DNA of 64,000 bases from Candidatus Doudnabacteria bacterium. Lineage in GTDB: Bacteria > Patescibacteriota > Doudnabacteria > UBA920. The notes under the pieces are model-generated. The model saw only the letters and a program-made list of their open reading frames with translations, was not told the origin of the DNA and ran no database searches. The DNA lies in the NCBI GenBank assembly GCA_963837465.1, contig CAWINB010000001.1, forward strand, positions 75,915-139,914, given 5' to 3'. The first letter of the stretch is position 1, and each line of letters starts with the position of its first letter. The position numbers were made by a program, and so were the translations under genes. Shown piece after piece: positions 131 to 59,554 of this stretch.

Positions 131-652
131 TTGCTGGATTTGGCCGTGGTGGTATTTTTTGGTTTTTACCGCCCGGTTATCCATCCTGCCGATGACATTG
201 TGGTTTTAGGCGCGGCGGCTAATACCCCCGCGGCTTATAACCGCAGCTTGCAGGGACTGAAATTATTTCAGGAAGGGTTAGCCCCGGCCATCGTGGTTTC
301 CGGAGGCAAAGATTACAGCCGCGGCCCCACCGAAGCCAATTATATGGAAAGGGTTATTGAGGCGAATTCATCCACCGCGGCGCCAATCATCGTGGAAGAC
401 AAATCTTATTCCACCTATGAAAATTTAAACAACACCCGCGCCATAATCGGCTACGGCAAAAGCATAATCATTGTCAGCGATACCTACCATTTAGCCCGCT
501 CCGTTTTAATGGCCGAACGTTTGGGCTTTAAGCCCGTTTACTGGAGTTCGCCATCGCCCGATTACTACGCGCCAAAAGAATTGGCCTACTACTATTTACG
601 CGAAGTTTTAGCGATGATAGATTACGTGCCAAAGTTTGTGACGGGAAAATAA
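131..652 (+). CDS. DUF218/YdcF-like (SanA/ElyC family) protein
   Basis: 173-aa ORF. The pattern VVLGAA...AIVVSGG...IIVSDTYHLAR resembles the DUF218 fold. Start is uncertain and may extend upstream of the window. Confidence 0.45.
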   Translation: MLDLAVVVFFGFYRPVIHPADDIVVLGAAANTPAAYNRSLQGLKLFQEGLAPAIVVSGGKDYSRGPTEANYMERVIEANSSTAAPIIVEDKSYSTYENLNNTRAIIGYGKSIIIVSDTYHLARSVLMAERLGFKPVYWSSPSPDYYAPKELAYYYLREVLAMIDYVPKFVTGK

Positions 653-3108: not shown

Positions 3109-3143
3109 AGCTTAGTGTCAAGGGTCACCCTTGACACTAAGCT
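3109..3143. terminator. palindromic hairpin (16-bp stem, 3-nt loop) between convergent dus and CYTH genes; repeated element
   Basis: AGCTTAGTGTCAAGGG-TCA-CCCTTGACACTAAGCT. The 25-bp core AGTGTCAAGGGTCACCCTTGACACT recurs identically at 22359-22383. Confidence 0.6.
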
Positions 3144-3712
3144 ATCCTGTCAAAAGTGAAGTATCTTAAATGACCGGCCGGAATATTGTAATCTTTTTCC
3201 AGGACGTAACCCGCGCTTTCCGTTCTTCTTCGCGCCCAGTCAAGGTCAAGTTTTTCAGCCGTAAGTTTTAAGCTGGCTTCGTCCGGGCCCTCAATTTCCA
3301 AATAAGTCGGCGCTTTGGGCCAGGTGTCCAAATCCAGCGTTACTTCTCCCAGCTTAAACGAATGGCGCTTTTTTTCCTGGAAACGGTAGGCCACCAAGCC
3401 CAGTTCCTCCAGAAAACTTCTAGCTTTTTCCATATCGTCAACTTTAAATTCAATTTCCTTGACGCCGATTTTTTGACCGACTACGCGGTATTTATAGGTT
3501 AAAAAAATGCCGGCGCGGTTTTTCCTCAAACGCGCCAGCTGGAAAACGGTGTTCCTGTTTTCCAGCCACTCCAAATTTTTATCGTAAAAAATTATTTCCG
3601 CGAGAAAGTCCTCGCCCAAATCTTCCGCGCCCAGCTTTTTTAAATCCGAGCGGATTTTGTCTTGGTCAACTTCCAGGAACTTAACCTCGATTTCCCTATT
3701 TGAATCGTTCAT
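3137..3712 (-). CDS. CYTH-domain protein (triphosphate tunnel metalloenzyme / class IV adenylate cyclase-like)
   Basis: N-terminal EIEVKFLEVD is the ExExK signature of CYTH. 191 aa. Confidence 0.7.
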   Translation of the reverse strand: MNDSNREIEVKFLEVDQDKIRSDLKKLGAEDLGEDFLAEIIFYDKNLEWLENRNTVFQLARLRKNRAGIFLTYKYRVVGQKIGVKEIEFKVDDMEKARSFLEELGLVAYRFQEKKRHSFKLGEVTLDLDTWPKAPTYLEIEGPDEASLKLTAEKLDLDWARRRTESAGYVLEKDYNIPAGHLRYFTFDRIA

Positions 3713-3814: not shown

Positions 3815-3919
3815 TACTGACCTTTAACACATAGCTTAATAATCAGATGTGTCGCAAACTCTATAAAATCAAGCAGTTTTGATTAACATCTCTATTAACT
3901 TAAGTGTTAAAGGTCAGTA
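3815..3919. mobile_element. 105-bp MITE-like repeat, copy 1
   Basis: Terminal inverted repeats TACTGACCTTTAACAC / GTGTTAAAGGTCAGTA. Near-identical full copy at 34198-34302 and 3' half at 59455-59497. All are intergenic. Confidence 0.6.
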
Positions 3920-3954
3920 GATTCTGCGGTTTTACGTGGTGTCCGCAAGCTCTG

Positions 3955-6030
3955 TTAAGGTAAAGCCACTTTCAGCAGATTACCATCATTGAGCACAAAT
4001 ATGGTCTTGCCGGGCTCGTTAACCGCAAAATCCATAAGTTTGGTAAACTGTGATGACTTAAGCGTTTCCTGCAGGTTACCGGTTTTATCCATAACCAAAA
4101 TTTGGTTATTGGCCACATCCATCAAATAGATATTGTTGAAGCTTTTTTGGGTATAGATTTTATCGCCCGGCGCAAGGGGGGTTGAAAGGCCGGAGTCGGC
4201 AAAGGCGGCAGGCCCGCCGGCAAAGAATTTATTGACGCCGTTTTGGCCGAGGGCAAAAATACTGCCGTCAACAGCCAGGCTTTGGGCCTGCGCCAGGCTT
4301 GGACCCTGCGTCGAGACCACCGGTTTTGAAATAGTATTTTTTGTAACCAGGAAACTCAGAACCTCGGCCGCGCTTTTATCTATTAAATAGACGCGGTTGT
4401 TGAGGCCATAAAAACTTATGCCGCCGAAACTGCTTTTGGCAGGCACGTTTTGGGTAAAAGCCGGACCCAGGGTACCGGATAAAAAATTCCAAACGTACAA
4501 ACTCGTTCCATCGTAAACCACGGCCGAAGAGTCGTTTACATCCACACTGGCCACAATGCCCACAGGACAGCTAAGCGCGCCGTCGGCTATTTGACCGCTT
4601 TGCAGGTCGTAACTGATAATATCACCAACAGCCTGGGTGCCCAAAAATTGCGGCAAACTTATCAGGCTCAATCCTTTGCCCAAATTACCCAAATCGCTTA
4701 CCTTGACCTGCGTGACTTTTTGTATCTGCTGCAGCAGCGTTTGATATTGGGAAGAAATTTGGCTGTAAAGGATTTTGTCGGCGGACGGTACGTTTTTGGC
4801 CGGCGGTAAATCCGTTCCGGCCTGCTTTATAAGACCGGCGGCCTGGCTGTCGTCTTTATACAGGATTAAAGATTGGGCGTTGGCCAAAAGGCTTTTGGCG
4901 TTTTGCAACTGGCCGCTGATTTGGTCTTGTACCGCACGGCTTTTCTTTAAGTGCGCGGCTATTATAATATTGGCGGCCACGGCCAGCAGTAAAATAAGCG
5001 CCGAAGCCAGAAAGAATTTTTTTTGCCGGCTGAGGGAGCGGAAATTTTGCGGATTAACCGAAGTCTTAACGGCCTTGGCCGAAGTTTTGGCTTTCTGCCA
5101 GATTTTATTGCCGCCTGCCATTAGGCTCCGGGTATTTTGTGGTAAATTTTTCAGCCTTTGGCCCAAAGCCGCCCCGCCTCCATTAATGGATTTTGGCAAT
5201 CCGGCGGAGGGTTGGCTGGACGGCAAAAAAGCTTTGACATAATCCAGAGTCCGCGTTATAACGGTTTTGTTGGTTAAACCAGCCGGGACTGAGTAACCCG
5301 CCGTTGCCGTTTCCTGCTCCCGGGCTTGTCCTTCCGGAACCTGCAAATTCAGCAAAACCCCAAAAGACGCCTCGCCACCCGAGTTTTGTTTCAACAGTCC
5401 GATAATTGTTTTTACTCCGAGCAAAAAATCGCCGCTCATAATATCTTTAAGCCTGTCCAGCGATAAGTAATTCAGCAGTTGGGTGGTAGAGAGGATAATA
5501 AGGTCGTTTAGCCGGATTTTGCCGATGGCGTAGTTTTGGAAAGTTTTTAACGGATGAGTTTGGTCCGATGAGCAGGAGATATCGGTAAACTCGCCGTTGC
5601 GAAATAAGAAAGCCGCCACTTTTCCGGTGCTGGCCATGCTTAACTCAAGTCCCTGCCTGACGCCCAGCACGCAGTTAAGCTTATCTATCCACTGTGTTTG
5701 ACCCAGGGAGGCCAGCTTGCCCAGTTCCTCGTTTATTTGGCCAATGGCCGTTTCAAAAGTGTTTTCCGAAAGCGGGGCAGTTTTATAAGCCCTTCTAAAG
5801 GCCGAACCTATAGCCAGACAAATCCTTTGGCAATCTTCCGTTGCCGCCGGCGTTAGTATGGGCAGTTCGGCCACGGCGTACAGTTCCGCGGAGCCGGCGG
5901 TTTCCGCCATCAAATAAACATAACTACCAGGCGCCTTATTGTTTCCAAGTTGGATTTTTGCTATCTGTGACTCTAATTCTTCCATGAAAATACGATTGGA
6001 TAAAATGAATTCCCGGTTATTATACAACAA
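3955..6030 (-). CDS. large membrane-anchored hypothetical protein (weak PP2C/SpoIIE-like N-terminal region, central TM, C-terminal beta-propeller-like repeats)
   Basis: 691-aa ORF with one hydrophobic span (FFLASALILLLAVAANIIIAA) and repetitive C-terminal segments. Domain calls are weak. Confidence 0.55.
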   Translation of the reverse strand: MLYNNREFILSNRIFMEELESQIAKIQLGNNKAPGSYVYLMAETAGSAELYAVAELPILTPAATEDCQRICLAIGSAFRRAYKTAPLSENTFETAIGQINEELGKLASLGQTQWIDKLNCVLGVRQGLELSMASTGKVAAFLFRNGEFTDISCSSDQTHPLKTFQNYAIGKIRLNDLIILSTTQLLNYLSLDRLKDIMSGDFLLGVKTIIGLLKQNSGGEASFGVLLNLQVPEGQAREQETATAGYSVPAGLTNKTVITRTLDYVKAFLPSSQPSAGLPKSINGGGAALGQRLKNLPQNTRSLMAGGNKIWQKAKTSAKAVKTSVNPQNFRSLSRQKKFFLASALILLLAVAANIIIAAHLKKSRAVQDQISGQLQNAKSLLANAQSLILYKDDSQAAGLIKQAGTDLPPAKNVPSADKILYSQISSQYQTLLQQIQKVTQVKVSDLGNLGKGLSLISLPQFLGTQAVGDIISYDLQSGQIADGALSCPVGIVASVDVNDSSAVVYDGTSLYVWNFLSGTLGPAFTQNVPAKSSFGGISFYGLNNRVYLIDKSAAEVLSFLVTKNTISKPVVSTQGPSLAQAQSLAVDGSIFALGQNGVNKFFAGGPAAFADSGLSTPLAPGDKIYTQKSFNNIYLMDVANNQILVMDKTGNLQETLKSSQFTKLMDFAVNEPGKTIFVLNDGNLLKVALP

Positions 6031-14063: not shown

Positions 14064-15014
14064 CTAAAAATCCGTTTGACTTTTAAAATCCTTAAGTCTT
14101 TGCTTAATATCTATGACTCTGATTTTTTGTAGTCGTCTGGTGCCAAGTCTTTCACAACAAAAACTGGCCAGTGCAGAGCCGTAAGCGCAGGCTTTTTTTA
14201 GGTTCTTCCACGAAGTATTATTTGTCTTTGCCAAATACCCCATAAACCCTCCCGCGAAGCTGTCGCCGGCGCCGGTGGGGTCGATGACTTTTTCCAGGGG
14301 GTAGCCGGGGAGATGAAAAATTTGGGATTTTTGGAACATCATCAGGCCGTATTCGCCGCGTTTGATGATGAGTGTAGGGGCTGGCTTTAGCCGCCCGTCA
14401 TCATTGGAAAGCGGGCGGGCAAGCCCGGCCCCTACAGTTCGCATAATCTTTTTGGCGGCTTTAATTAAATTATGTTCTCCCGATAGCTGTCGTGCTTCGG
14501 AATCGTTGATAATAAAAACATTTACCAGTTTTAAAACTTTGGCCAGCTGTTTGGGCGCGCTTGATATCCAAAAATTCATTGTATCCAGCCCCACAAATTT
14601 TGGTTTATTTATCTGGCTTAAAACTTCCAGCTGCAAAGAGGGGTGGATGTTGCCCGAAAAAATGTAGCCGGCTTTGGTGTGGCGGGGGAGTAGTCGGGGT
14701 TTAAAATTTTCAAAAACATTTAAGCGGGTAAATAAAGTTTCGCGGCTGTTTAAATCAAAACTGTACTCGCCGCCCCAGGCAAAGGTTTTGCCGCTTTCGG
14801 TTTGCAGGCCCGAAATATCCGCGGCGCCTCCAAGAATTTTTTTATCGGCCGCCGCAAAATCATTCCCCACTACCGCTACAAGCATCGGCTTTATAAAAAA
14901 CCTTGCGGCCAAAGAAAAATAAGTGGCGCTGCCGCCCAGCGCTCTCTTAACTTTGCCAAAAGGGGTTTTAATGCTGTCGTAGGCTACGGACCCGACGATT
15001 AAAAGGTTATTCAT
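14064..15014 (-). CDS. PfkB-family carbohydrate kinase (ribokinase-like)
   Basis: N-terminal GSVAYD and C-terminal DPTGAGDSFAGGF PfkB signature. Contains the in-frame palindromic insert at 14374-14435. Confidence 0.8.
   Translation of the reverse strand: MNNLLIVGSVAYDSIKTPFGKVKRALGGSATYFSLAARFFIKPMLVAVVGNDFAAADKKILGGAADISGLQTESGKTFAWGGEYSFDLNSRETLFTRLNVFENFKPRLLPRHTKAGYIFSGNIHPSLQLEVLSQINKPKFVGLDTMNFWISSAPKQLAKVLKLVNVFIINDSEARQLSGEHNLIKAAKKIMRTVGAGLARPLSNDDGRLKPAPTLIIKRGEYGLMMFQKSQIFHLPGYPLEKVIDPTGAGDSFAGGFMGYLAKTNNTSWKNLKKACAYGSALASFCCERLGTRRLQKIRVIDIKQRLKDFKSQTDF
14374..14435. repeat. GC-rich palindromic element (RPE-like) inserted in-frame in the PfkB kinase gene
   Basis: 24-bp arms GTAGGGGCTGGCTTTAGCCGCCCG / CGGGCGGGCAAGCCCGGCCCCTAC around a 14-bp centre. 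Same left arm and similar right arm at 38180-38263. Confidence 0.7.
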
Positions 15015-17356: not shown

Positions 17357-17643
17357 AAAAAATACTCCGTTTCTTGGAGTGATTTTTGATATAAAAATCC
17401 ATTAAATTGGCCTTGTGTTCAAGGTCATTAATCGCTAGAAAAAATAATTTTAAATCGTAGTCTGAAATTTCTGAAAAATTGCGGAGCATAAGGCTACATT
17501 ATACCAAGATAAGCCGGAATTAGGGAAGTGTTTCAAGTGGGCAGACAAAGGGGTACGGCCAAAAATAATTGGGGTTGCTTAATGGGTTTATTAAATGATA
17601 TAATCGCCTTATAATTACTGACGCCAAAAAAACTCATCGCAGT

Positions 17644-22349: not shown

Positions 22350-22358
22350 TCGGCAGTT

Positions 22359-22383
22359 AGTGTCAAGGGTCACCCTTGACACT
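22359..22383. terminator. second copy of the 25-bp palindromic terminator element
   Basis: AGTGTCAAGGGTCACCCTTGACACT, identical to 3114-3138. Confidence 0.55.
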
Positions 22384-33407: not shown

Positions 33408-33944
33408 GTGTCTATGATACAAGAAAAAAAATTAGCCCAGTATCTAGTGGTTATAATGCCAATATTAATTTCAATAATTGCTCTTGGGTTGTCTGGTTAT
33501 GCAGTTTATATTTCCTATAAACAACTTCAGTTTAGTTCGCGTCCATACGTTTTTGTTGAAAATTTTGGCTACTTGAATAAAGATAATCTGTTAGTACAGG
33601 ACATACAAAGTGTCCTTATCAAACCCTTAAATAGCCCCAGTAAAATTTTACAGGGCCAATTTGTATATTCCCTTTTCCAAAATGGTAAATTAATAAAAAC
33701 CCTTGATTCTCAAGGCTATCCAAGTTATATCCTTTACCCTACTGATGGAGATCAGCACACGCAAACTACGGGAATCGACCTTATCAGCCTGTTAAAAAAT
33801 CTTGGCAACGGGCAAGAGATTAGAAGATCAGTCAGCGTAAGCTATAAAGGCTTATCTGATAATAAACAGTATTTTTTTCAGGGTTCGTGGAAATTAGATC
33901 CAATAAGTAAAACTTGGCAAGTTATTGATACAAACGCTGACTAG
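33408..33944 (+). CDS. hypothetical membrane-anchored protein
   Basis: 178 aa with N-terminal TM helix. AT-rich. Confidence 0.4.
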   Translation: MSMIQEKKLAQYLVVIMPILISIIALGLSGYAVYISYKQLQFSSRPYVFVENFGYLNKDNLLVQDIQSVLIKPLNSPSKILQGQFVYSLFQNGKLIKTLDSQGYPSYILYPTDGDQHTQTTGIDLISLLKNLGNGQEIRRSVSVSYKGLSDNKQYFFQGSWKLDPISKTWQVIDTNAD

Positions 33945-34197: not shown

Positions 34198-34302
34198 TAC
34201 TGACCTTTAACACATAGCTTAATAATCAGATGTGTCGCAAACTCTGTAAAATCAAGCATTTTTGATTAACATCTCTATTAACTTAAGTGTTAAAGGTCAG
34301 TA
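34198..34302. mobile_element. 105-bp MITE-like repeat, copy 2
   Basis: Near-identical to copy 1 (2-3 substitutions). 17-bp terminal inverted repeats CTACTGACCTTTAACAC. Confidence 0.6.
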
Positions 34303-36682: not shown

Positions 36683-36697
36683 GAAGGAATTGCACGG

Positions 36698-37135
36698 ATG
36701 AACACGGATAGGAAACAGATTAACACGGAGTTGCTGCACGAAGATTTGACGTACCAAATCCGGTCGGCAATTTTTGAGATAGCTAATAAGTATGGGAAGG
36801 GTTTTAAAGAGAGTATTTACCAGGCGGCGTTAGCCGAAGAGTTCGCCAAACGCAGTATTCCTTTTGAGTCACAAAAACGCATCACAGTTTATTCTTTAGA
36901 TACTGGCAAACCCCTGGGTTATTATATCCCGGATTTTATAGCTTACGAAAAAATTATTATAGAGATAAAAGCCACAGATTTTACGACAGACCAAAATATT
37001 GAGCAAGAGCTGTCTTATCTGCGAATAAGTACTTACGAGATTGGGATTTTAGTTAATTTTAATGCCCGCAAACTGGACATCCAAAGACTCATATTTACCA
37101 ACGACCGCAAGCTATTTTTGAAAAAAATACTCTGA
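36698..37135 (+). CDS. GxxExxY-family protein (PD-(D/E)xK nuclease-like)
   Basis: GFKESIY is the GxxExxY motif. 145 aa. Bounded by 18-bp terminal inverted repeats. Confidence 0.7.
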   Translation: MNTDRKQINTELLHEDLTYQIRSAIFEIANKYGKGFKESIYQAALAEEFAKRSIPFESQKRITVYSLDTGKPLGYYIPDFIAYEKIIIEIKATDFTTDQNIEQELSYLRISTYEIGILVNFNARKLDIQRLIFTNDRKLFLKKIL

Positions 37136-37154
37136 TCCGTGTTAATCTGTTTCT
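36712..37154. mobile_element. GxxExxY nuclease gene cassette bounded by perfect 18-bp terminal inverted repeats
   Basis: GAAACAGATTAACACGGA at 36712-36729 and its reverse complement TCCGTGTTAATCTGTTTC at 37137-37154. Shorter AACACGGAT / ATCTGT units flank both sides. Confidence 0.55.
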
Positions 37155-37193
37155 TATCTGTGTTTATCTGTTACAAATACATTATATTGTCCT

Positions 37194-37642: not shown

Positions 37643-40600
37643 ATGGAAAAACTGCTGGACAATCTCAATAAAGAACAGCTTTCCGCGGTTACCCATAGGG
37701 ACGGGCCGCTTTTGATAGTGGCGGGAGCCGGGACGGGAAAGACCACGGTTATTACCCGGCGGATAGCTTATTTAATAGAACAGGGATTGGCCAAGCCCGA
37801 TGAAATTTTGGCGCTAACGTTTACGGACAAAGCCGCCGGGGAAATGCAGGACAGGCTGGCGCAGTTGTTGCCTCTGGGCTATTACGATATGTGGATTTCC
37901 ACGTTCCACAGCTTTTGCCAGCGAATTTTGGAACAGCACGGGCTGGATATCGGCCTGCCCGGGGACTTTAAACTGCTCAATAAGGCGGGCGCCTGGATAT
38001 TAATTTACAATAATTTGCAGAAATTTAATTTAAATTACTACAAACCGCTGGGCAACCCCAATAAATTTATTTCCGCTTTGCTTAAGCATTTTAGCCGGTG
38101 CAAAGACGAGCTGATAACTCCGGAGGCCTATTTGGAGTACGCGCGGGAACTGAAGCTGTCTACAGATGTAGCCGAAGGTGTAGGGGCTGGCTTTAGCCGC
38201 CCGCCTCCTGATGACGGGCCGCGCGGATCTTCTTTACGGGGCGGGCAGGCAAGCCCAGCCCCCGCGGATCCCAATATGGATCCAGCCGAAACACTTCGAA
38301 TAGAAGAAATTGCCAACGCTTTCCATATTTACGAAAAACTCCTGCTGGACGGCAACTTTTTGGACTTTGCCAACCTGATTAATTACACAATAAAACTTTT
38401 TGAAAAACGCCCGCAAATTTTAAAACACTACCGGGAAAAGTTTAAATATATTATGGTGGATGAGTTTCAGGATACCAATTTGGCGCAGTACGAGCTGATT
38501 AAAATGGTTGCCGGCGGCGGATTACGCAGCGTTCCCGCTTACGGGGCGTCCCCGGATGCCGATAAATCCGCGCGCCACACCCCATCTGCCAACCTCGTAG
38601 TCGTGGGCGACGACGACCAATCCATTTACAAATTCCGCGGCGCGTCCGTTTCCAATATTTTAAAATTCCAGGAGGACTACAGCCCACTCAAACAAACCAG
38701 TTTGGTGGAAAATTACAGAAGCGGCCAGGAAATTTTGGATTTGGCTTATGACTTTATCCAGTCCAACAATCCCGAGAGGCTGGAAGTTAAGTTAAAAATC
38801 AATAAAAGACTTAAAAGCCAAACGAAGGAAAAATCTGTTATTGAGGTTTTGGAAGGCAAGGATTTGGTTGAGGAACTTAATTTTGTCGCCAAAAAAATTA
38901 CGGAACTGAAATTGCAAAGCCAAAAAAGCACCTGGAACGATTTTGCCGTTTTAATAAGAAGCAATTCCGCGGCCCGCGAACTGTTGCCGGTCCTGGAAAA
39001 GCACGGCATCCCGCACACGTTTGTGGCCAATACAGGACTCTACAACAAGCCTTTTATTTCATTGCTGATTGCTTATTTGGAATGTCTGGACAATTTTCAC
39101 GACTCTTTTGCCTTGTATCGCGTGCTTTCGTTTGGCGAATTTAATATGCCGCCGGAGGACTTGGCGCAGGTTCTGGCCAATTCCGAAAGAAAAACCTTGT
39201 CTTTATACGAAATGCTCGGCAAAGCCGAAACTTTGCCGCAAATAGGGGGGAAGTCGCAAAAAATAATTCAAAATATTATTTTGCTTTTAAACCGGCACGC
39301 CGCGGTGGCCAGAGAAAAAGCGGCTAATGAAGTCTTTATCCAGATTATCCGTGATTTAAAACTCGACCAATGGCTGGAGGAGGATAATTCGCAAAACGCG
39401 GAAAACCGCGAGCTTTTGGAGCAGTTTTATAAAAAAATTGAAACTTTTGTGGCGGAGAATGTCGATAAAAGCCTGCATAATTTTTCGCATCTGCTCAATT
39501 TGGAAATAGAAGCCGGTGACGAAGGGCAGATTAAATTTGACCCGAACTTAGGCCCCCAAAGCCTTAAAATCCTTACCGTGCATTCGGCCAAGGGCTTGGA
39601 ATTTGAATATGTTTTTATACCCAACATGGTTGACCAGCGCTTTCCCACGCGGGCGCGCGGCGAACAAATAGAAATTCCGGCGCCGCTTATAAAAGATATC
39701 CTGCCGGAAGGGGATTTCCATCTCCAGGAGGAGAGGCGGCTGTTTTACGTGGCCGTAACCCGGGCAAAATCCCATTTATACTTGTCCTGGAGCAAGGATT
39801 ACGGCGGCGCCAAAACCAAAAAGCCTTCGCTGTTTTTGCAGGAGACCAAACTGGTGCCCGGGGAACATACTTCCCGGGCCACGGGAAAAGTATTTTTTCG
39901 GGGCAGCTCGAAAAATCAGGTGGTTTACAAATTTTTACCCGCGACTTTTTCTTTTTCCGCTCTCAAAGCTTTTGAAAACTGCCCGTTCCAATACAAATAC
40001 CAGTACTACCTAAAATTGCCCTGCCCCGGCAGCGCTTATTTCAGCTTTGGCCAGACAATGCATAAAACCTTTGAGTTGTATTTGAAAGATTACGCGGCCA
40101 GAAAAAGCCAGAGCCAGCGGGATTTATTCGCCAAGACATCCGCCCAAGCCGAGCCGGGCGATTTTAAATTTTTGGAAAAACTTTACCAGGACAGCTGGGT
40201 GGATGAGTGGTATAAAGATAAAAAGCAAAAAGAAGATTACCGCGAAAGAGGCCGCCGGCTTTTAAAGATTTTTTACGAAATTTCGCGAAAAAACCCGCCG
40301 AGCCCCAAATACCTGGAAAAGTCTTTTTACCTGCCTCTGGGGAAATATAAATTTACCGGCAAAATAGACAGAGCGGATTTTGTAAACGGCGCCCTGGAAA
40401 TCATTGATTACAAAACCAGCGAAAAAATACCGAAGCAAAATGACAAGGACGGACTGGACCAGTTGTATGTTTATCAGTGGGCGGCCCAGGAATTTTTGGG
40501 GGAAAAAGTTTCTGCCCTAAAGTACTGGTATTTGAACGAGGATAAGTTTCTGCCGGAAAAAATCGCGTCGGACCCGGAAATCCGGGAATTAAAGCAAAGG

Positions 40601-51362: not shown

Positions 51363-52709
51363 ATGCTCGACATAAAATTTATCCGTGAAAACGCGGACAA
51401 AGTAAAAAAAGCCATAACAGACAAAAGGATAGTCCTGGATCTTGATGAACTTCTCAACCTGGACGCCAAACGGCGCGACCTTTTAACGGAACTGGAGGGC
51501 CTGCAGGCGGTTAAGAATCAGGCTTCCCGGGAAATCCCGTCATTACCCGCAGAAGAAAAAAAGGTTAAGCTTTTGGAAATGAAGGAAGTGGACGAAAAAA
51601 GCACGGCTTTAAAAAAGCAGGTTACAGAAGTGGAGACGGAGTATGTAAGGCTGATGTATTTGGTGCCAAACATACCGAGCCCCGAAACCCCCATTGGAGA
51701 AGACGAATCCAAAAATATCGCGTGGCGCTACTGGAGCCAGGCGACAGGAATTATTGATCCTTTTAAGGACGGTCAAAAAGTGAAAGATGTGCCGGCAAAA
51801 TTCGATTTTCAAATAAAAGACCATATTGCCCTGGGTAAAGATTTGGATTTGATAGACACCGAAGCCGGGGTAAAAACTTCGGGCTTTAGGGGCTATTACC
51901 TAAAAAACGAAGCGGTACTTATGCAGTATGGGCTTATTTGGCTGGCCTTGAAAAAAATGCAGGAAAAAGGCTTTGGGTTAATGATCCCGCCGATTTTGGA
52001 CCGCGAATTCGCCTTTTACGGGAGCGGGCATTTCCCATTTGGCAAAGGCGACCAATATCAGGTACTGACTGAAGACGAAAAGCAAAAAGGGGATTCGGAG
52101 CCTCTTTATCTGGCCGGGACTTCGGAACCTTCGCTCCTGGCTTATTACTCCGACAAAACTTTGGAAGAAAAAGATTTACCCGTAAAAGTTTGCGGCGTCA
52201 GCCCGTGCTTTAGGGGAGAAATCGGCTCTTACGGAAAAGACGCGCGCGGAATTTACAGGGTGCACGAATTTATGAAAGTGGAACAAGTTGTTTTGTGCCG
52301 GGCGGATATAATAGAAAGCGAAAAATGGCTTGAAGATATGCGGGAAATAGCCGAGAGCCTGCTGCAGGATTTGAAACTGCCGTACAGAGTCTTAAATATT
52401 TGCACCGGGGATATGGGCGCGGGCAAATATAAAATGTACGATATTGAAACCTGGATGCCTTCACGCAACAGCTTTGGAGAAACCCACAGTGATTCCAACT
52501 TAACCGACTGGCAGGCGCGCCGCTTAAACATTAAATACAAAGCGGCGGACGGTAGAATTAAGCATGTCTACACGCTTAATAACACCGTGGTCGCCTCACC
52601 CCGAATTTTAATCGCCATTTTGGAAAATTACCAGCAAAAAGACGGCAGCATAACAGTGCCGGAAGCTTTACGGCCTTACGTGGGTAAGGATTTAATTAAA
52701 AAGAATTAA
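51363..52709 (+). CDS. serS: seryl-tRNA synthetase
   Basis: N-terminal coiled-coil arm and class II core (FRGE, GAGKYK...). Confidence 0.9.
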   Translation: MLDIKFIRENADKVKKAITDKRIVLDLDELLNLDAKRRDLLTELEGLQAVKNQASREIPSLPAEEKKVKLLEMKEVDEKSTALKKQVTEVETEYVRLMYLVPNIPSPETPIGEDESKNIAWRYWSQATGIIDPFKDGQKVKDVPAKFDFQIKDHIALGKDLDLIDTEAGVKTSGFRGYYLKNEAVLMQYGLIWLALKKMQEKGFGLMIPPILDREFAFYGSGHFPFGKGDQYQVLTEDEKQKGDSEPLYLAGTSEPSLLAYYSDKTLEEKDLPVKVCGVSPCFRGEIGSYGKDARGIYRVHEFMKVEQVVLCRADIIESEKWLEDMREIAESLLQDLKLPYRVLNICTGDMGAGKYKMYDIETWMPSRNSFGETHSDSNLTDWQARRLNIKYKAADGRIKHVYTLNNTVVASPRILIAILENYQQKDGSITVPEALRPYVGKDLIKKN

Positions 52710-52857
52710 CACGGATATACTGATTGGCCGCGGATCTACGGATATCTACTGATACTAAACTGCTACGGCGGATGTGAATAATTACCGCGTCTGATTATTG
52801 GAGTCCGTAGGCATCAGCAGATCCGTACCCCATCCGTAAACCCGTGTTTTATTATGT
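52705..52857 (+). promoter_or_regulatory. conserved structured intergenic module (copy A) upstream of the ftsQ-like gene
   Basis: Starts with ATTAACACGGAT overlapping the serS stop. CGGATCTACGGATATCTACTGATAC ... AGATCCGTACCCCATCCGTAAACCCGTGTTTTATTATGTATG. Paralogous to 59431-59554. Confidence 0.5.
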
Positions 52858-59036: not shown

Positions 59037-59435
59037 GTGGTTTGTGTAAACTTTTTATTCCCTTATTTAAAGCAAAAAATGAACCGGGAAGATTTATTAA
59101 AATTTAAATTTGATGTGGATAATGTTTGGTTTCTTTGGGGTTTATGCCTTATTTTAAATATTATAACATTTTTATTCCTGTTTTTCAAAATCCATCCGGG
59201 AAGTAAAATTTTGGCCCTGCATTATAACGTCCTGCTCGGGGTGGACTGGTACGGGGCCGGCAGGAATTTATACTTTATTCCGGGGGTGGGATTTTTAATT
59301 TCAGCCGTAAATTTTACCCTTTACCGATCGCTTGGCAACAATGAAGCCTTCCTTTCTTCTTTAACCGCTTTTGTGAGCTTGTGCGCGCAGCTTATATTAC
59401 TGGTCGCGGCGCTGTTTTTGGCTAAAGTCAATTAA
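59037..59435 (+). CDS. hypothetical membrane protein
   Basis: 132 aa, three to four TM helices. Confidence 0.4.
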   Translation: MVCVNFLFPYLKQKMNREDLLKFKFDVDNVWFLWGLCLILNIITFLFLFFKIHPGSKILALHYNVLLGVDWYGAGRNLYFIPGVGFLISAVNFTLYRSLGNNEAFLSSLTAFVSLCAQLILLVAALFLAKVN

Positions 59436-59554
59436 CACGGATCTACGAATACTATTTTGATTAACATCTCTATTAACTTAAGTGTTAAAGGTCAGTAAGA
59501 TCAGTAGGTATCTGTAGATCCGTTTTCAATCCGTATACCCGCGTTAAATTTATT
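59431..59554 (+). promoter_or_regulatory. conserved structured intergenic module (copy B) containing a partial MITE copy (59455-59497)
   Basis: AATTAACACGGATCTACGAATAC ... [MITE 3' half] ... GTATCTGTAGATCCGTTTTCAATCCGTATACCCGCGTTAAATTTATTATGTAT. Flanking inverted repeat CGGATCTAC / GTAGATCCG. Confidence 0.5.

Follow-up and report, generated by a model that had tools for sequence, protein, structure and literature searches.

Nezha of cyanobacteria is a MITE related to the insertion sequence (IS) IS630, and members of the IS630 family insert at CTAG with duplication of the central TA. High copy number is usual for MITEs. The known system that, by design, appears closest to the locus discussed here is RUP together with IS630-Spn1. 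RUP is a 107-bp MITE in S. pneumoniae, and it has been tied to IS630-Spn1 by the similarity of the terminal inverted repeats (TIRs) and by its TA targets; 108 copies are present in one genome and the TIR is listed as 9 bp (PMC2229807). The Correia/NEMIS elements of Neisseria are likewise small, bounded by TIRs with TA at the termini, and give long-hairpin transcripts (PMC2229807, Table 1).

Here we discuss a 105-bp repeat in 64,000 nucleotides (64 kb) of DNA from Candidatus Doudnabacteria, a member of the Patescibacteria/CPR, an assignment that homologues of RmuC also give; this whole stretch is referred to as "the window". The repeat is very probably a MITE that arose by internal deletion from an IS630-family (IS630/Tc1/mariner superfamily) IS and that is non-autonomous. 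Its likeness to RUP would be one of architecture and mechanism, not of membership. Both RUP (107 bp) and the window element (105 bp) lie between genes and are non-coding, every frame being interrupted by stops. Both have TIRs that resemble those of an IS630-family IS, RUP inserting at TA and the window element having TA at its termini, and both occur as highly similar copies, which suggests recent activity (PMC2229807). The long stem-loop known from RUP transcripts also has a counterpart here, in the form of a hairpin in the predicted fold (PMC2229807). The two differ in host (Firmicutes vs Patescibacteria/CPR), in the contiguous TIR (9 bp vs 16 nt) and in copy number, 108 per genome for RUP vs two full copies and one fragment in 64 kb here. 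Relative to Correia/NEMIS and Nezha, the likeness is again architectural: those elements belong to unrelated hosts, and the window element yielded neither an IHF site nor a promoter-like motif.

Two copies are full length and both lie on the forward strand. Copy A spans positions 3815..3919 and copy B positions 34198..34302; each is 105 bp long including the terminal TA dinucleotides, and 101 bp long should TA prove to be the duplicated target. The identity between them, originally estimated at ~97%, is slightly higher, 103/105 (98.1%), and the alignment places the only mismatches at element positions 49 and 62. Since only two differences have accumulated in 105 positions, these data indicate that copies A and B arose by recent amplification. 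The third, copy C (59455..59497, forward strand), had been described as a truncated 3′ half, and its 43 nt are indeed 100% identical to element positions 63-105. Copy C is a 5′-truncated, dead remnant and presumably immobile because the left TIR is absent. Its right TIR, at 59482-59497, is the sole one kept. A sensitive blastn search of the 64-kb window gave no further copies, hence the total stays at two full copies and one fragment.

The TIRs were located by pattern matching. In copy A the left TIR, TA|CTGACCTTTAACAC, is at 3815..3830 (forward strand) and the right TIR is at 3904..3919 (reverse strand), while the corresponding positions in copy B are 34198..34213 (forward) and 34287..34302 (reverse). 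The 16-nt TIR sequence TACTGACCTTTAACAC occurs exactly five times in the window, twice at the ends of A, twice at the ends of B and once at the right end of C; shuffling predicts 0.01 exact matches. If up to two mismatches are allowed there are six matches, a number reached by 0/100 shuffles. The sixth site (TAATGACCTTGAACAC, 17415-17430) matches at 14/16 positions, lies inside a 79-aa ORF and is not accompanied by further similarity to the element; we regard it as a chance match. The original prediction gave the TIR as 16-17 bp. Sixteen nucleotides are perfect, while the 17th, a preceding C, is present in copy B alone. Further inward, an imperfect inverted repeat extends to 27 nt at 89% in copies A and B. 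Moreover, in the alignment the similarity among A, B and C ends exactly at the TIR tips, and the flanks directly outside are unrelated.

As expected from the original prediction, the element holds no ORF; each of the six frames contains two to four stops. It is also poor in GC (30.5%) relative to the window (45.3%). Prokaryotic MITEs are non-coding, about 50-500 bp long, bounded by TIRs and dispersed as copies with unrelated flanks, and the 105-bp element shares all of these features. Two internal pairs, CACAT..ATGTG and AATCAA..TTGATT, had been proposed to form hairpins. Both pairs are present, but the minimum-energy fold is instead one long hairpin built from both halves of the element, with a predicted energy of −38.0 kcal/mol (z −8.7) on the forward strand and −37.6 kcal/mol (z −7.0) on the reverse strand.

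The assignment to the IS630 family is based on partner ISs in metagenomes. Scanning JGI metagenome contigs with the 26-nt arm pattern identified three loci only (L002, L003 and L004). L003 carries a complete 1113-bp IS, extending from TACTGAGCTTTAACAC to GTGTTAAAGGTCAGTA, and L002 a complete 1105-bp IS; in both, the terminal ~27 nt are common to the MITE. Each of these ISs encodes a 170-aa helix-turn-helix (HTH) ORF (HTH_33, 7e-16; HTH_23) overlapping a DDE_3 ORF (1.7e-20). When the L003 protein is joined across the frameshift it scores 174.9 bits on the NCBIfam model NF033545, "IS630 family transposase" (cut-off 100). Hence the metagenome scan provides the autonomous transposase with matching terminal repeats that the original prediction had suggested looking for, and NF033545 places it in the IS630 type. 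L002 and L003 come from metagenome samples unrelated to that of the window and may belong to a different host organism. No transposase is encoded in the 64-kb window according to tblastn (best E 0.67).

The comparison of the MITE arms with the IS ends shows that 25-28 of the first 32 nt match, and that there is no similarity past about 29 nt. The window element differs from an IS630-family IS in being without a transposase and in that only ~55 of its 105 bp are recognizably IS-derived. The left arm is nearest to the DDE-side IS end and the right arm nearest to the HTH-side end, with a margin of 1-3 nucleotides. In copy A, the 11 nt after the left TIR (to 3841) are most like the DDE-side end of L003, while the 11 nt adjoining the right TIR (from 3893) are most like the HTH-side ends of L002 and L003. 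The third locus in the scan, L004, is a 106-bp MITE, the left end of which is identical to the window MITE at 30/32 positions. Because the ends are shared and the core is unrelated, the L004 MITE is a miniature element derived independently from the same lineage of ISs. An additional pair of loci, L012 and L013, was reached via the transposase relative P0242. These hold the same 1105-bp IS, without any difference, at two different sites, which shows that the lineage is mobile; the TIRs of this IS differ from those of the MITE by one mismatch.

A protein search also returned more distant relatives of the transposase, for which the source annotation is IS630 family transposase. Among the named relatives the closest, P0241, has 65% identity and is present in two Patescibacteria MAGs (GCA_018896365.1 and GCA_018901015.1). 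It was considered as the partner transposase and rejected, as it is a 205-aa truncated HTH_33+DDE_3 gene without recognizable TIRs. The P0241 gene (positions 2001-2618 at L009-L011) is situated beside PIN toxin genes and looks like a decayed IS.

The two parent ISs share a feature that is not known to be common to all members of the IS630 family. In both, a conserved A8 run (cttAAAAAAAAtggg) marks the overlap of the HTH and DDE ORFs (ORF1 and ORF2), the latter being in the +1 frame; the overlap is at 520-545 in L003 and at 560-590 (minus strand) in L002. The run suggests that a full transposase may be produced by programmed transcriptional or translational slippage.

All 14 of the 14 termini available, i.e., those of the three window copies, the L004 MITE and four IS copies, read TA|CTGA...TCAG|TA. 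At 13/14 termini, TA is bordered on the outside by C or T, which makes the flanks CTAG-like, and copy B lies in a perfect C-TA-G context (C|TA...TA|G). This pattern fits the duplication of TA by IS630 elements, where formally the TA could be part of the TIR; family knowledge favors reading it as a probable duplication. Because no empty site was found, we infer the TA duplication, and hence transposition into these sites, instead of observing it. At copy A, no empty site was obtained, as the nearest homologue of CYTH, with only 58% identity, is too distant for an intergenic comparison. The search around copy B was equally negative, as RmuC relatives (86-89% identity) have other upstream genes and their upstream DNA can be aligned only in the promoter-proximal part. 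Exact-protein look-ups for the neighbors of A, B and C returned only contigs of sample ERR10755945, or nothing. Before insertion, the copy A site would read GAATC-TA-AGTCTGCC, with a single TA.

The setting of copy C bears on the same question. The remnant is bracketed by a host hairpin, ACGGATCTAC...GTAGATCCGT followed by TTTT (59438..59522, forward strand). In silico removal of copy C leaving one TA gives a clean 15-bp stem-loop and then UUUU (−18.2 kcal/mol, z −5.8). The restored host hairpin is indirect support for TA as the duplicated target. The hairpin itself is part of a separate ACGGAT-rich palindromic repeat, not of the MITE. The 9 nt AGATCAGTA after copy C were considered as a duplicated MITE tip, a possibility that was rejected because comparison with 52727-52752 assigns them to this host palindrome.

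The ACGGAT-rich palindromes constitute a second family in the window, in which the left-hand blocks are ACGGAT and the right-hand ones ATCCGT. This family fills the intergenic region 52700-52855 and forms the hairpin around remnant C (59432-59535); its sequence TTAACACGGAT occurs seven times at up to one mismatch vs 1.3 expected. One segment, CTACTGAT, resembles the MITE tip CTACTGAC, which may be due to chance or to target preference. Similar ACGGAT-type motifs make up 36-nt inverted repeats (89% complementary) that bracket a GxxExxY-family ORF (36698..37135; TIGR04256, E 1.2e-30) within 36694-37171, and this arrangement looks like a separate cassette-like or mobile unit. Two other repeats were noted. 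The near-perfect palindrome AGTGTCAAGGGTCACCCTTGACACT is present twice (3114-3140 and 22357-22383) within repeats of 27-44 nt. One of its copies lies between the convergent Dus and CYTH genes, adjoining MITE copy A. The palindrome could serve both genes as a bidirectional terminator or represent a small REP-like repeat. In addition, an exact 26-nt direct repeat, GTGTAGGGGCTGGCTTTAGCCGCCCG, is found at 14372-14397 and 38178-38203.

All three copies of the MITE are intergenic, as noted in the original prediction. Copy A is 35 nt past the stop of a 676/691-aa gene (3955..6030, minus strand) and 102 nt upstream of the start of the CYTH gene (3712, minus strand), such that both neighbors are co-oriented on the minus strand; the CYTH protein is recorded from a contig of 699,532 bp. 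Copy B is about 46 nt after a terminator-like structure (hairpin plus T-run) downstream of the ORF at 33408..33944, and about 180 nt upstream of rmuC. Copy C has a small membrane ORF on one side and a glycosyltransferase gene on the other. Relative to the neighboring genes, the orientation of copy A is opposite to that of B and C. Scans around each of the three copies gave no promoter or terminator above the shuffle background, and the element hairpin is not followed by a U-tract.

An intergenic position near gene ends or starts, together with a very stable long hairpin on either strand (z −8.7 and −7.0), would also be expected of a dispersed structured small RNA or a cis-regulatory hairpin, such as a stabilizer, an RNase III target or a terminator. 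The function would then be what is selected, with mobility being incidental. In keeping with this idea, other bacterial MITEs, Correia and ERIC, have been reported with long stem-loop transcripts (PMC2229807). We nevertheless consider it improbable. The original prediction had left room for a small RNA, and the Rfam search returned no family at the gathering score. In E-value mode it yielded only generic eukaryotic miRNA-precursor hairpins, at 16-28 bits vs cut-offs of 83-149, with a plant miRNA precursor as the best match (27.6 bits vs a cut-off of 90). The inversion of copy A relative to its flanking genes, when compared with B and C, does not favor a cis-acting role either, nor does the lack of a U-tract and of promoter or terminator signals at the copies, and the copies are too alike for a covariation test. 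Moreover, the inverted ends in common with the ISs fully account for the hairpin, and therefore it lends nothing specific to an RNA function.

The same IS ends raise the question of whether the copies are independent remnants of full-length ISs that decayed in place, or result from segmental duplication, in which case the 105-bp unit would never have transposed as such. Copy C is clearly a decayed fragment, and the ends of the element are those of an IS. However, A and B are of equal length, 98% identical and built around one shared non-IS core, which argues that they were copied as a unit; to arrive at this state by decay, the same internal deletion would have to occur twice independently, which is implausible. 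A segmental duplication conflicts with the finding that similarity stops at the TIR tips with no shared flank. Taken together, this origin is highly improbable. As the element is short, palindromic and intergenic, it also resembles a REP/BIME-type palindrome mobilized by a RAYT (IS200/IS605-like Y1) transposase, or a repeat of another non-IS630 class. REPs are 20-40 nt long and are not known to have long TIRs or to be bounded by TA, so neither the size nor the TIRs of the window element fit, and an IS630-type DDE transposase is encoded by the element whose ends it matches; we find this assignment scarcely credible. The reading as an IS630-derived MITE is supported by ends in common with IS630-family ISs, by the sharp TIR boundaries and by the lack of coding capacity.

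How the MITE moves can be modeled on other IS630 elements. It keeps only ~27 nt at each end of the parent IS, with the 16-nt TIR as the core of the kept ends and the presumed transposase-binding site, and with a ~50-nt non-coding core in between. Without mobility of its own, the MITE would depend on an IS630-type DDE transposase provided in trans by a full-length relative such as those at L002 and L003. In this model, the N-terminal HTH domains of the transposase would bind both TIRs, and the enzyme would excise the element and paste it into a TA, preferably in a CTAG-like context. The TA would thereby become duplicated on both sides. Copy C would have been inserted into the loop of the host hairpin and would have lost its left half later. 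Mobilization in trans is the mechanism with the best support; both it and the cut-and-paste pathway are suggested by what is known of the family.

In sample ERR10755945, the same genes are found on short-read contigs, which terminate within each of the three copies. At three contig ends the break comes after 30 nt of the repeat, which is what a k-mer repeat break would predict. Hence, the repeat breaks short-read assemblies of this organism at every copy. One contig, L015 (its positions 3531-3570 correspond to about 3916-3955 in the window), stops only 4 nt into copy A. This early stop could be due to low coverage or to a population variant such as an empty allele.

Among 185,579 reference species genomes, none has a match to the paired-TIR pattern and none to the degenerate 26-nt arm pattern, and the latter has no match in 2.9 million viral contigs. 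A literature search found no paper that combines MITE, IS630 and Patescibacteria. The repeat is a new MITE family in a new host, a CPR bacterium with a tiny genome, while in kind it is ordinary selfish DNA. Together with its partner ISs, it represents an IS630-type IS/MITE lineage of the Patescibacteria that had not been catalogued before. Annotators should mask the repeat as a MITE and should avoid calling it an sRNA or a regulatory motif. The TIR/transposase pair is offered for biochemical testing; it opens no new mechanism. The reduced genomes of episymbionts are thought to carry few transposons. Against this background, it is conceivable, if doubtful, that an active IS630/MITE pair is amplifying in the ~0.7-Mb genome of this Candidatus Doudnabacteria (CPR) bacterium, where either the genome has no transposase of its own, such that one would arrive from elsewhere, or the hairpins have acquired a role as RNA-level regulators between the closely spaced genes. 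What the near-identical copies in the window point to is that a transposon has recently been active in a CPR genome of very small size.
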